Of a stretch of DNA of 37,836 nucleotides, positions 13,117 through 15,456 are shown piece by piece. Below the pieces are notes generated by a model. It searched no databases. It saw only the letters and a list, made by a program, of their open reading frames with translations, and was not told the DNA's origin. The DNA is from a virus: the UHGV virus genome UHGV-0166071; one strand, 5' to 3'. Each line of letters begins with the position of its first letter. The stretch's first letter is position 1. A program made the position numbers and the translations under genes.

Positions 13117-13778
13117 ATATCTACGAAAGAATTGATGGCAGCAAATACCGAAATATTTGGGTAGTTGGCGATCTGCACGGATGCTACACGAACCTGATGA
13201 ACAAACTGGATACGATTGGATTCGACAACAAAAAAGACCTGCTTATCTCGGTGGGCGATTTGGTTGATCGTGGTGCAGAGAACGTTGAATGCCTGGAATT
13301 AATCACATTCCCCTGGTTCAGAGCTGTACGTGGAAACCATGAGCAAATGATGATTGATGGCTTATCAGAGCGTGGAAACGTTAATCACTGGCTGCTTAAT
13401 GGCGGTGGCTGGTTCTTTAATCTCGATTACGACAAAGAGACTCTGGCTAAAGTTCTTGCCCATAAAGCAGATGAACTTCCGTTAATCATCGAATTGGTGA
13501 GCAAAGATAAAAAATATGTCATTTGCCACGCCGATTATCCTTGTTACGAATACGAATTTGGAAAGCCAGTTGATCATCAGCAGGTAATCTGGAACCGCGA
13601 ACGAATCAGCAACTCACAAGACGGGATCGTAAAAGAAATCAAAGGAGCGGACACGTTCATCTTTGGTCATACGCCAGCAGTGAAACCACTCAAGTTTGCC
13701 AACCAGATGTATATCGATACTGGGGCAGTGTTCTGCGGAAATCTCACATTGATTCAGGTACAGGGAGAAGGCGCATGA
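13113..13778 (+). CDS. ninI: NinI serine/threonine protein phosphatase (221 aa)
   Basis: Calcineurin-like motifs GDLHG, GDLVDRG, GNHE matching lambda phosphatase; no ninH-sized ORF lies between ninG and ninI. Confidence 0.9.
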
Positions 13779-14398
13779 GACTCGAAAGCGTAGCTAAATT
13801 TCATTCGCCAAAAAGCCCGATGATGAGCGACTCACCACGGGCCACGGCTTCTGACTCTCTTTCCGGTACTGATGTGATGGCTGCTATGGGGATGGCGCAA
13901 TCACAAGCCGGATTCGGAATGGCTGCATTCTGTGGTAAGCACGAACTCAGCCAGAATGACAAACAAAAGGCTATCAACTATCTGATGCAATTTGCACACA
14001 AGGTATCGGGGAAATACCGTGGTGTGGCAAAGCTCGAAGGAAATACTAAGGCAAAGGTACTGCAAGTGCTCGCAACATTCGCTTATGCGGATTATTGCCG
14101 TAGTGCCGCGACGCCGGGCGCAAGATGCAGAGATTGCCACGGAACAGGTCGGGCAGTTGATATAGCAAAAACAGAGCAGTGGGGGAGAGTTATCGAGAAA
14201 GAGTGCGGAAGATGCAAAGGTGTCGGCTATTCAAGAATGCCAGCAAGCGCCGCATATCGCGCTGTAACGATGCTAATCCCAAACCTTACTCAACCCACCT
14301 GGTCACGCACTGTTAAGCCGCTGTATGACGCTCTGGTGGTGCAATGCCACAAAGAAGAGTCAATCGCAGACAACATTTTGAATGCGGTCACACGTTAG
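13775..14398 (+). CDS. Q: Q late-gene antiterminator (207 aa)
   Basis: Essentially lambda Q ([31 protein letters not shown]...NILNAVTR). Confidence 0.95.
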
Positions 14399-14440
14399 CA
14401 GCATGATTGCCACGGATGGCAACATATTAACGGCATGATA

Positions 14441-14469
14441 TTGACTTATTGAATAAAGTTGGGTAAATT
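14441..14469 (+). promoter_or_regulatory. pR' late promoter with overlapping qut region
   Basis: TTGACT-17nt-TAAATT (ttgacttattgaataaagttgggtaaatt), matching lambda pR' as recalled, about 45 nt after Q. Confidence 0.7.
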
Positions 14470-14504
14470 TGACCCAACGATGGATAAATGCACTCGTTAA
14501 ATAA

Positions 14505-14535
14505 AGCCCTGAGTTAATAGCTCGGGGCTTTTGCG
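14505..14535 (+). terminator. tR'-like intrinsic terminator
   Basis: 9-bp stem AGCCCTGAG/CTCGGGGCT (one G-U pair) with 7-nt loop, then TTTTGCGTTTG; about 30 nt downstream of the predicted pR' start. Confidence 0.55.
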
Positions 14536-14539
14536 TTTG

Positions 14540-14607
14540 CACAACAGGTAAGAGCATTCTCCCTTATGGGGCTTTGCTTAAATGCACCGAGTGCTCTTAT
14601 CGTTGTG
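14540..14607 (+). repeat. hairpin module copy 1
   Basis: CACAACAGGTAAGAGCA (14540-14556) and TGCTCTTATCGTTGTG (14592-14607) form a long imperfect inverted repeat around a 35-nt loop. Confidence 0.55.
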
Positions 14608-14954
14608 GCAGCACAACGATAGTTTTCGTCAGAGTTAGCGACTTTGCGGTTTTTTAGAAACTGACCACAAAGATAAATGCAAACGATGATTTGATGTTGA
14701 TGGCGGCCTAAGAAACCAAAATCACTGGGTCTTCCGACTCCCAGCTACCAAATTCGGCGCACTGGCCCGGTGTGATTAATAATGGGCACCCATTCAAATG
14801 TACCCTCGGCAGGTTCGATTCCTGACTAGACCCAGATGGCGACGGGGAGGGTCCAATTGAGTGGGTAACAACGGGCATGTCGCCTTAGTAAATCCCTCAA
14901 GGGTGCGACGCATAGACCGTACTAGCGTCGCCGTCAGCTCCACGAAACGGAGCG

Positions 14955-15042
14955 CATAACAGGTAAGAGCATTTGTAGAGTTCGACTCTCTGCCGTGGGC
15001 TTTTTCCCGCGATGCGAGCCATAAATGCTCTTTCCGTTGTGC
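14955..15042 (+). repeat. hairpin module copy 2
   Basis: CATAACAGGTAAGAGCATTT (14955-14974) and AAATGCTCTTTCCGTTGTGC (15023-15042); the right arm and downstream leader match the lambda late leader as recalled. Confidence 0.55.
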
Positions 15043-15240
15043 TGAATTAAGCGAATGCCGGAAGCAGAACCGGATCACCAAATGCGTACAGGAGTCATCG
15101 CCTCCCAGCAACAGCACAACCAAAACTGAGCCGTAGCCACTGGCTATCCTGAACTCATCAGTGATAGTTATGCTGCGGCCTTCTTTTTCTCCCTTCCCAA
15201 TATAAGAACTACGCAATCCGTTACTGGCGGAGGCGTTGCT

Positions 15241-15456
15241 ATGAAATCAATGGACAAAATCTCAACTGGCATTGCCTACGGAACATCTGCTGGTAGTGCA
15301 GGATACTGGTTTTTGCAGTGGTTGGATCAGGTCAGTCCGTCACAGTGGGCTGCGATTGGAGTGCTTGGAAGCCTTGTGTTGGGTTTTCTCACTTATCTGA
15401 CAAATCTGTATTTCAAAATCAGAGAAGACAGACGAAAGGCTGCGAGAGGTGAATGA
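15241..15456 (+). CDS. S: class II pinholin S21 (71 aa) with dual-start motif
   Basis: [71 protein letters not shown] matches phage 21 S as recalled; Met1 and Met4 give antiholin/holin starts. Confidence 0.9.

Follow-up and report, generated by a model that had tools for sequence, protein, structure and literature searches.

Transfer-messenger RNA (tmRNA) is regarded as universal in bacteria, with its tRNA-like and message parts acting as one unit, and the tag encoded by Escherichia coli ssrA comprises ten codons (ANDENYALAA). Among phages, the 2014 census recorded tmRNAs only in mycobacteriophages, in Bacillus phage G and, as a "TLD-only" (tRNA-like domain only) form, in DS6A; a TLD-only molecule resembling that of DS6A strongly inhibits tmRNA, perhaps via titration of SmpB (PMC4131195). 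Here we describe an element on the plus strand of the lambdoid prophage UHGV-0166071, located in the late leader 3' of gene Q. The window, that is, the whole stretch of DNA analyzed, comprises 37,836 nt. Sequence comparison places the element in a family of conserved phage RNA genes that are akin to the message half of tmRNA and have no recognizable tRNA-like half. On balance, we favor the view that it represents an intact gene for a tmRNA-derived phage RNA, which would provide an alternative tag template in lytic trans-translation.

The relationship to tmRNA is most apparent in the first two segments of the RNA body, which comprise the resume context and a tag reading frame overlooked in the original prediction, an account of this region made by reading the sequence without database searches:

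14618-14678, plus strand: 5' domain of the RNA body as delineated by alignments, with the invariant GUUUUCG (14622-14628), a small hairpin UCG..CGA, GCGACUUUGCGG and the resume context AAAGAUAAAU.
14679-14711, plus strand: tag frame GCA AAC GAT GAT TTG ATG TTG ATG GCG GCC TAA, encoding ANDDLMLMAA followed by a stop, as indicated by sub-threshold Rfam tmRNA matches and by its alleles.

Within 14669-14711, the tmRNA-type resume context AAAGAUAAAU leads directly into GCA and thus into a ten-codon tag terminated by UAA. The resume motif is identical in a true permuted tmRNA (L007; ARAGORN resume consensus) and in Legionella ssrA. Comparing 34 distinct nucleotide alleles of the tag revealed that every one is open for exactly 10 codons and then closed by a stop codon (TAA in 31, TAG in 2 and TGA in 1), the remaining two frames being open in just 3 and 8 alleles. 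The alleles differ largely through synonymous changes (CTG/TTG, GTT/GTA, GAG/GAA, AAT/AAC, GCC/GCG/GCT), with one peptide being encoded by several of them. At the peptide level, the ends are kept and the middle is variable, following the pattern AN[DE]x...[LM][AM][AV]A, as exemplified by ANDDVVLMAA, ANEEMYLAVA, ANDEQFLAVA, ANDNTFLAVA and ANEERFLMAA, by ANDDLMMAAA in P7 and by ANDNEMRAVA in Berlingot. Because the ten-codon frame is open in all alleles, is closed by any of the three stop codons and varies largely at synonymous positions, the phage tag is very probably a translated sequence. Reading the sequence upstream of the tag revealed neither a Shine-Dalgarno sequence nor an in-frame start, so that the frame is unlikely to be entered by ordinary initiation and is most naturally interpreted as resumed in the manner of trans-translation.

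The segments 3' of the tag form a set of helices and pseudoknots, followed in UHGV-0166071 by an extension:

14698-14724, plus strand: analogue of helix 5 around the stop codon (14698-14700 with 14722-14724; GG 14702-14703 with CC 14716-14717), with compensatory changes in 4 of 4 pairs.
Within 14725-14757, plus strand: hairpin 2 (CTGGG 14725-14729 with CCCAG 14740-14744), covariation test.
Within 14725-14757, plus strand: pseudoknot A, in which the loop CCGA 14734-14737 pairs with TCGG 14754-14757, covariation test.
Within 14758-14787, plus strand: stem 1 of pseudoknot B (CGCAC 14758-14762 with GTGTG 14770-14774), covariation test.
Within 14758-14787, plus strand: stem 2 of pseudoknot B (GCCC 14765-14768 with GGGC 14784-14787), covariation of this stem.
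14775-14783, plus strand: invariant ATTAATAAT in pseudoknot B.
14788-14866, plus strand: hairpin X of the long form (ACCCA 14788-14792 with TGGGT 14862-14866; ACCCTC 14802-14807 with GAGGGT 14847-14852).
14861-14961, plus strand: extension of the long form, with the conserved block GTGGGTAACAACGGGCATGTCGCCTTAGTAAATCCC, two hairpins and then G-CATAAC-A, from an alignment of 19 distinct sequences.
14905-14911 with 14925-14931, plus strand: extension hairpin 1, GCGACGC/GCGTCGC, with the compensatory forms GCAGCGA/TCGTTGC, GCTG/CAGC and GTCA/TGAC.
14937-14953, plus strand: extension hairpin 2, GCTCC-ACGAAAC-GGAGC, with the compensatory forms GCCAC/GTGGC and GTCC/GGAC.

We assessed the stop helix, the hairpin, pseudoknot A and stem 1 of pseudoknot B in a covariation test comprising 25 sequences of less than 93% identity. 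The resulting model has 97.8% of its cells paired, with changes on both sides at 12 of 18 pairs and 59 compensatory cells, whereas none of 500 shuffles was as good and slid controls reached just 26-49% pairing. In pseudoknot A, CCGA/UCGG is replaced by CCAG/CUGG, by UCGA/UCGA in Berlingot and by GUCG/CGAC in P7. Stem 2 of pseudoknot B covaries as a whole (GCCC/GGGC, GCCCTGA/TCAGGGC, GGCGGGAG/CTCCCGCC, and including GGCGGGAG/CUCCCGCC), and compensatory changes are present in five helices. The 5' domain is strongly conserved in sequence, with a small-hairpin loop ranging from 3 to 14 nt across the family; RNAalifold predicted no consensus fold for this domain. The UHGV-0166071 copy represents the long form, reaching ~170 nt beyond the common core (14618-14787), and the segment 14618-14960 has a minimum free energy of -112.9 kcal/mol (z = -2.3). 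The tip of hairpin X is variable: in UHGV-0166071 it holds the T-arm-like GGCAGGTTCGATTCCTGAC (14808-14826), and it differs in Skatevirus, Bas77 and PJ16.

Of 50,697 phage records searched by megablast and blastn, 469 contain a match to the core, among them phages of Salmonella (192), Klebsiella (107), Escherichia (106) and Erwinia (22). The carriers include lambdoid phages, HK620 and HK633, P1/P7 and SJ46, Ackermannviridae (Vi01 and others), the N4-like phages Pollock and St11Ph5, Skatevirus, the Nonanavirus PJ16, Bas77-81 of BASEL and the Erwinia phage Berlingot (Chaseviridae). Since the interior retains 72-90% identity across hundreds of unrelated phages, it is not chance sequence. The exact 18-nt resume motif occurs in at least 120 IMG/VR contigs, and a family member is present in 670 of 5,426 complete E. 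coli genomes, with 568 places on plasmids of ~90-100 kb (P1-like) and 151 on the chromosome; the long form of UHGV-0166071 is found in 41 of the complete E. coli genomes at ~98% identity. A scan of genome contigs with ATAAATGCAAACGAWGA was uninformative as to host range, since its output was dominated by chance matches and by genuine tmRNAs, those of Legionella among others. None of the family records carries an RNA annotation, the stretch being either unannotated or labeled "hypothetical protein". Likewise, no family described in Rfam 15 matches the element at gathering score, and full-text literature searches, which did not cover the P1 genome paper, returned no description of such an RNA. 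In one prophage contig (L018), an int-alpA RNA (RF02996, 264-330 on the minus strand, 43.7 bits, above gathering) lies a few hundred nt 3' of the tmRNA-like gene.

The family occupies distinct genomic contexts that have just the body in common, with a promoter, a terminator or a hairpin module as 5' neighbor and a module, another hairpin or a mini-tRNA as 3' neighbor. Virulent phages of the Skatevirus type carry a strong sigma-70 promoter (TTGACA-17-TAGATT) a few nt 5' of GUUUUCG, and the transcript of the virulent relatives is predicted to start a few nt ahead of this motif. In virulent siphoviruses, hairpin modules and tRNA genes are located 3' of the RNA. In P7, the RNA resides inside the C1-repressed ban operon, 5' of tRNA-Asn and tRNA-Thr. 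The lambdoid late leader, the promoter units of virulent phages and the P7 ban operon are all lytic-phase, translation-related settings. Inspection of the P7 locus (L125, 2278-3130) placed the tmRNA-like RNA with tag ANDDLMMAAA between the C1 operator Op(ban) and the two tRNA genes; an intrinsic-terminator-like hairpin, GCCCATCTTCGGGTGGGCGTTTTTT, is found 5' of the RNA, and a hairpin module directly follows the CCA of tRNA-Thr.

These findings can be combined in a tentative mechanism. In UHGV-0166071, the RNA would be made in lytic growth only, as part of the Q-antiterminated late transcript from pR', and two flanking hairpin modules may act in processing or insulation, setting free an RNA of ~170-350 nt. 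Nascent chains of stalled ribosomes would then receive the phage tag (A)ANDDLMLMAA instead of, or besides, the host tag. For ribosome entry, the tRNA-like function would have to come from an unconventional source, which might be a paired minihelix formed by the processed arms of the modules or co-opted host alanyl-tmRNA/SmpB; alternatively, the GCA codon could be loaded directly into the empty A site. That a split or tRNA-domain-less template for trans-translation is encoded by enterobacterial phages, and is decoded on stalled ribosomes without a canonical, covalently attached tRNA-like domain, is a more doubtful proposition than the gene itself, and we advance it as a possibility. Taken as a whole, the data suggest that intervention in host ribosome rescue may be widespread among enterobacterial phages, relatives of lambda and P1 included.

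The modules in question flank the RNA body on both sides, and a further hairpin abuts its start:

14540-14607, plus strand: module copy 1, CACAAC-A-GGTAAGAGCATT (14540-14558), a loop and G-AGTGCTCTTATC-GTTGTG (14589-14607), from repeats and fold.
14955-15042, plus strand: module copy 2, CATAAC-A-GGTAAGAGCATT (14955-14973), a loop and AATGCTCTTTCC-GTTGTG (15024-15041), from repeats and fold.
14597-14622, plus strand: 11-bp hairpin TTATCGTTGTG-GCAG-CACAACGATAG, abutting the start of the RNA body and terminator-like in a scan.

The 5' arm GCACAACAGGTAAGAGCATT at 14539-14558 recurs at 14954-14973 with 19/20 identities (95%), and the 3' arm TGCTCTTATCGTTGTG at 14592-14607 recurs at 15026-15041 with 14/16 (88%). 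Within each copy, the two arms pair with one another to give a long hairpin, in which 6 bp and 12 bp are separated by a bulged A. Across the family, the arms are conserved and the loops are hypervariable, spanning 26-101 nt and being mutually unrelated. Covariation within the module is evident at mid-stem, where AAGAGCA/UGCUCUU is exchanged for AAUCUCA/UGAGAUU, AAUUGCA/UGCAAUU or AAGCUGC/GCAGCUU. Irregularities are conserved as well: among 51 distinct body-associated modules, 27 have U·U at pair 3 and 35 have U·G at pair 11, the second or third pair counted from the loop, the exceptions at pair 11 being C-G in 10 and U-A in 6, copy 2 of UHGV-0166071 among them. The ACAAC motif 5' of the modules also precedes genuine tRNA genes, which suggests tRNA-type (RNase P) processing between A and GG. 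The modules would be conserved features of phage RNA-gene arrays, with a role in processing or insulation. The hairpin at 14597-14622 is followed by TTTTCG, its U-run being that of the invariant GUUUUCG with which the body begins, and in other relatives the stem of the upstream module ends precisely at this U-run. This hairpin might dampen read-through without Q.

Among the conceivable suppliers of the tRNA-like function, the flanking arms are our preferred candidate, based on their 12-bp helix with a U·G near the loop end, the hypervariable loop and the direct abutment on GUUUUCG in many relatives. In the latter, the 3' arm (N-AGUGCUCUUUCC) directly abuts (GAU)AGUUUUCG, reproducing the spacing of tmRNA, which has a 7-nt acceptor strand, 5 nt and RGNUUCG. 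The layout of the arms also resembles permuted two-piece tmRNA genes, in which the acceptor 3' strand, an intervening segment and the acceptor 5' strand form a hairpin. Once the loop is excised, an alanine-type minihelix would remain, in many cases with N1-A2-G3·U70 and A73; the commonest arm ends, CAG/UUGA, correspond to C1-G72, A2-U71, G3·U70 and A73. The corresponding one-piece molecule of UHGV-0166071 would have 14589-14601 paired to 14962-14974; the 3' arm belonging to copy 2 itself carries A in place of G. We consider this proposal attractive but weak.

A number of results weigh against an intact trans-translation gene, and they concern both the arms and the tRNA-like half in general. 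In 16 of the 51 modules, C-G or U-A takes the place of the arm wobble, the P7 module has G3-C70, and Pollock, L011 and L091 carry other downstream hairpins. The virulent relatives are without an upstream arm, and variation in the arms is matched locally, within a module, with no covariation linking the upstream module to the downstream one (L061). ARAGORN found no tRNA or tmRNA in the UHGV-0166071 stretch and, over ~125 relatives, called no copy of the family, although it did call the true tmRNA in L007. We also performed a permissive Rfam scan over 14380-15260, keeping sub-threshold matches. The only relevant matches were to three tmRNA families, each below its gathering score: tmRNA_permuted (RF04321) at 14576-14711 with 24.7 bits against 47, beta_tmRNA (RF01850) at 14658-14758 with 16.7 bits against 84, and tmRNA (RF00023) with 7.1 bits against 47, the last with a T-loop match at 14812-14822. 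Scores for tmRNA were likewise far under threshold in four other loci, and none of the models RF00023, RF01849-51 and RF04321 reached its gathering score. A conserved combination of T-arm and acceptor was not detected by scanning, no T-loop being found beside any candidate acceptor strand, and the similarity of the 5' region to nt 1-31 of E. coli ssrA is not significant.

The Infernal alignment illustrates which part of the molecule is missing. It places the hairpin 14597-14622 as P2 of permuted tmRNA and reduces 72 model positions to 3 nt; according to the alignment with L007, these positions represent the T-arm, both acceptor strands, the intervening segment and the D-loop. A permissive scan of all 37,836 nt revealed no tmRNA or tRNA-like element elsewhere, the sole Rfam family above threshold being Lambda_thermo, the lambda cIII thermoregulator (4337-4395, minus strand, 88.5 bits). 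L007 itself, a viral contig from IMG/VR (UViG_3300018418_001574), encodes at 1407-1604 a bona fide permuted two-piece tmRNA whose tag is ANDNIAYEEFALAA; RF04321 matches this tmRNA at 101.9 bits, and its 18-nt resume motif is the one found in the phage family. L022, caught by the same motif, appears to be a true tmRNA as well, judged by eye from its GGGGGTGACCTGGTTTCGAC 5' end.

We considered and rejected several candidate structures. A canonical one-piece tmRNA formed by GGGGCTT (14568) and CAGCTCC-A (14936) would have no T-arm, its GGAGC pairs locally with covariation, and promoter-type relatives do not have the 5' strand. A P2-like pairing of GGGUUU with AAAUUC clashes with the covarying pseudoknot A. 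Pairing with host ssrA was no better than for shuffles (RNAduplex, -85.3 vs -89.4 ± 5.1), and the local alignment of the arm and 5' region with nt 1-31 of E. coli ssrA was not above shuffles (p ~0.24-0.58). Finally, mini-tRNA-like loops were evaluated as a tRNA-like partner acting in trans (L012, L023, L044, L088, L108, L114 and Berlingot); they have no G3:U70 and occur in a minority only, and the complementarity of their linkers to the body shows no covariation.

These loops are part of a wider occurrence of tRNA-like pieces around the family. T-arm-like hairpins with a 4-6 bp stem and a TTCGANT loop, sometimes accompanied by a D-arm-like hairpin, recur in otherwise unrelated loops and tips, namely in the loops of the six L-numbered loci just listed and at 14975-14993 and 14808-14826 of UHGV-0166071, the former being the hairpin GTAGAG-TTCGACT-CTCTGC in the loop of module copy 2. 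Neither ARAGORN nor the Rfam tRNA model recognized these recurrent hairpins. In Berlingot (L127, ~766-830), an unannotated 64-nt mini-tRNA-like element, GGTTGGT ... CTCGG-TTCGATT-CCGAG-ACCGACC-A, follows directly 3' of the body and has no D- or anticodon arm. In Vi01 (L126, 2828-2957), and also in L069, a tRNA-like element of ~130 nt is situated ~290 nt 3' of the tag frame, comprising an acceptor GCCGTTA/AAACGGC, a T-arm TTGGG-TTCGACT-CCCTA and an encoded T-CCA end; ARAGORN made no call for it in L069, and it is unannotated in the Vi01 record. A possible second conserved RNA-like unit lies 3' of the module at 15036-15120 and also in the lambda late leader. In both lambda and UHGV-0166071, GTTGTGCTG (15036-15044) pairs with CAGCACAAC (15112-15120), enclosing a hairpin GCCGGAAGCAGAACCGG; elsewhere the unit begins with GUUGUGGUGAAUGCGCAGGCUGAUGCGC and ends with GCCGGAGAUCAGCACCGGCCACCACAAC, ~280-320 nt 3' of the tag in 32 loci. 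It could represent another unannotated RNA family of phage leaders and tRNA arrays.

Turning to other explanations for the element, the one that fares best, though we regard it as unlikely, is that of an untranslated decoy, which would mimic the message part and pseudoknots of tmRNA and titrate SmpB, S1 or RNase R, thereby inhibiting or re-tuning trans-translation in the lytic phase. In its favor, no tRNA-like domain is detectable here, and half-molecules can act as inhibitors, given that a TLD-only RNA is on record for DS6A and that a TLD-only molecule similar to it inhibits tmRNA (PMC4131195). However, a decoy has no need for a frame of exactly 10 codons that ends in a stop of any kind and shows synonymous-type variation. 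Marginally less probable still is a regulatory or cis-acting RNA outside ribosome rescue, such as an Hfq-binding small RNA or sponge, or an element for processing or stability of leaders and tRNA operons, with the tag-like frame being a tmRNA relic. The RNA is always found in RNA-gene arrays or leaders beside hairpins and tRNAs, A-rich, ARN-like stretches are seen to flank the frame, and the 5' domain is without a predicted fold, all of which speaks for this view; yet the frame and its stop are kept in the divergent Berlingot, P7 and Vi01 copies while the adjoining sequence changes, and no Rfam small RNA family matches.

A non-functional remnant, be it a decayed tRNA or tmRNA pseudogene or a scar between lambda-like Q and phage-21-like lysis genes, is very improbable. 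The T-arm-like motifs at 14808-14826 and 14975-14993 and the position of the insert between direct repeats, with lambda as the empty form, gave this idea some appeal. Yet these motifs reside in variable tips absent from relatives, and the idea is largely refuted by the distribution of the family (469 phage records from many families, 72-90% identity of the core), by the compensatory changes in five helices and by the intact tag frame of all alleles. A minus-strand protein is the least credible proposal: ORFs (open reading frames) of 140 aa (14794-15216) and 56 aa (14708-14878) are present and some GenBank records annotate hypothetical proteins there, but these ORFs have no Pfam match and just weak PHROG matches of 16 residues coinciding with a conserved hairpin arm, are unconserved in position and frame among relatives, most of which carry no annotation at this place, and vary in the pattern of RNA helices.

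The element we favor as a tmRNA-derived gene is embedded in a leader of lambda type:

13775-14398: gene Q, upstream of the pR'-like promoter.
14441-14469, plus strand: pR'-like late promoter, TTGACT-17-TAAATT, from a promoter scan and identical to lambda pR' in the alignment.
14503-14536, plus strand: tR'-like terminator hairpin AAAGCCCTGAGTTAATAGCTCGGGGCTTTTG, an inverted repeat, presumably tR' given its lambda-like position.

Aligned with lambda, the pR'-like promoter and the beginning of the 6S region are identical, and the prophage matches until ~14498, rejoining at the 3' arm of copy 2 with ~94% identity from 15026. This leaves ~470 nt extra relative to lambda, which has a single hairpin module immediately 3' of tR'. 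A holin/endolysin pair of the phage-21 type begins at 15241. The original prediction had noticed two module copies (14540-14607 and 14955-15042) around ~350 bp with one copy in lambda, and the repeat search and lambda alignment bear this out. It also stated that no credible ORF lies on the plus strand between the copies, in agreement with the longest ORFs over the region having no Pfam match and weak PHROG matches over a conserved hairpin arm. The inverted repeat GCGACGC/GCGTCGC that it described does exist, with its arms at 14905-14911 and 14925-14931, and the T-arm-like GGTTCGATTCC is present at 14812-14822, within GGCAGGTTCGATTCCTGAC.

Three origins had been offered for the interior. A structured small RNA is the one that holds, as the interior is a conserved RNA gene whose helices and pseudoknots are backed by the covariation check that had been called for (compensatory changes in 12 of 18 pairs). 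A decayed tRNA does not fit: GGTTCGATTCC lies in a variable hairpin tip absent from other family members, the T-arm-like motifs are unconserved, and ARAGORN and the Rfam tRNA model were both negative, with no RF00005 match at E<=10 within 14380-15260. The recommended Rfam/Infernal search thus returned the sub-threshold tmRNA matches and no tRNA. The idea of a recombination scar at a module boundary stands in part, the modules being direct repeats and the interior a gene rather than a scar. Recombination between the two modules would yield the single-module state of lambda, and as direct repeats they could also account for gain or loss of the gene relative to lambda.

About 1% of the phages sequenced so far, and 12% of the complete E. 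coli genomes, thus carry an unannotated tmRNA-like message module that escapes both ARAGORN and Rfam; textbook phages (P1/P7, HK620, lambda relatives) are among its carriers, as are virulent phages of the therapeutic type. A functional module would allow phages to alter ribosome rescue or protein tagging in lytic growth, possibly as a counter to defense nucleases that generate non-stop mRNAs. If functional, it would also constitute a natural test of how much tRNA-like domain trans-translation needs and a new RNA family for annotation pipelines, replacing spurious "hypothetical proteins". Should the message-only template prove true, it would represent a new viral way to re-program ribosome rescue and the fate of incomplete proteins.

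Compared to one-piece tmRNA, as represented by E. coli ssrA, the phage RNA has the same GCA resume codon and A-rich, UAAAU-type upstream context, a tag that likewise has ten codons, an AN[DE] start and a small hydrophobic end, and the same arrangement of a stop codon within a helix followed by pseudoknots. In contrast, the acceptor stem with 3' ACCA, the T-arm, pseudoknot PK1 and P2 are not recognizable in the phage RNA, which has two pseudoknots instead of four and a tag ending in LMAA or LAVA instead of ALAA. Permuted two-piece tmRNA (RF04321, RF01850; e.g. L007) provides the best, albeit sub-threshold, Rfam match of the UHGV-0166071 stretch. Its resume motif AAAGAUAAAUGCAAACGA is identical, and its hairpin composed of 3' strand, variable loop and 5' strand, directly 5' of AUAG-UU(U)CG and the message domain, resembles the layout of many family members. 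Whereas permuted tmRNA has an acceptor piece with a T-arm and a long P2 pairing, the phage RNA is without both, and G3·U70 and ACCA are unconserved in the phage family. The Stx-phage genes ileZ-argN-argO are tRNA genes in a phage late leader, and tRNAs of phage late leaders or arrays, including the ban-operon tRNAs of P1/P7, occupy the same niche as the present RNA, 3' of pR'/tR' or inside tRNA operons. They share the preceding ACAAC leader motif and, presumably, lytic co-transcription, the phage RNA differing from them in having no cloverleaf or anticodon arm. The tmRNAs of mycobacteriophages and Bacillus phage G are likewise phage-encoded derivatives of tmRNA, as is the DS6A TLD-only fragment, which consists of a single half of the molecule; whereas DS6A keeps the tRNA-like half, the present family, absent from the census and associated with enterobacterial hosts, is its mirror image, in which the message half is kept (PMC4131195).

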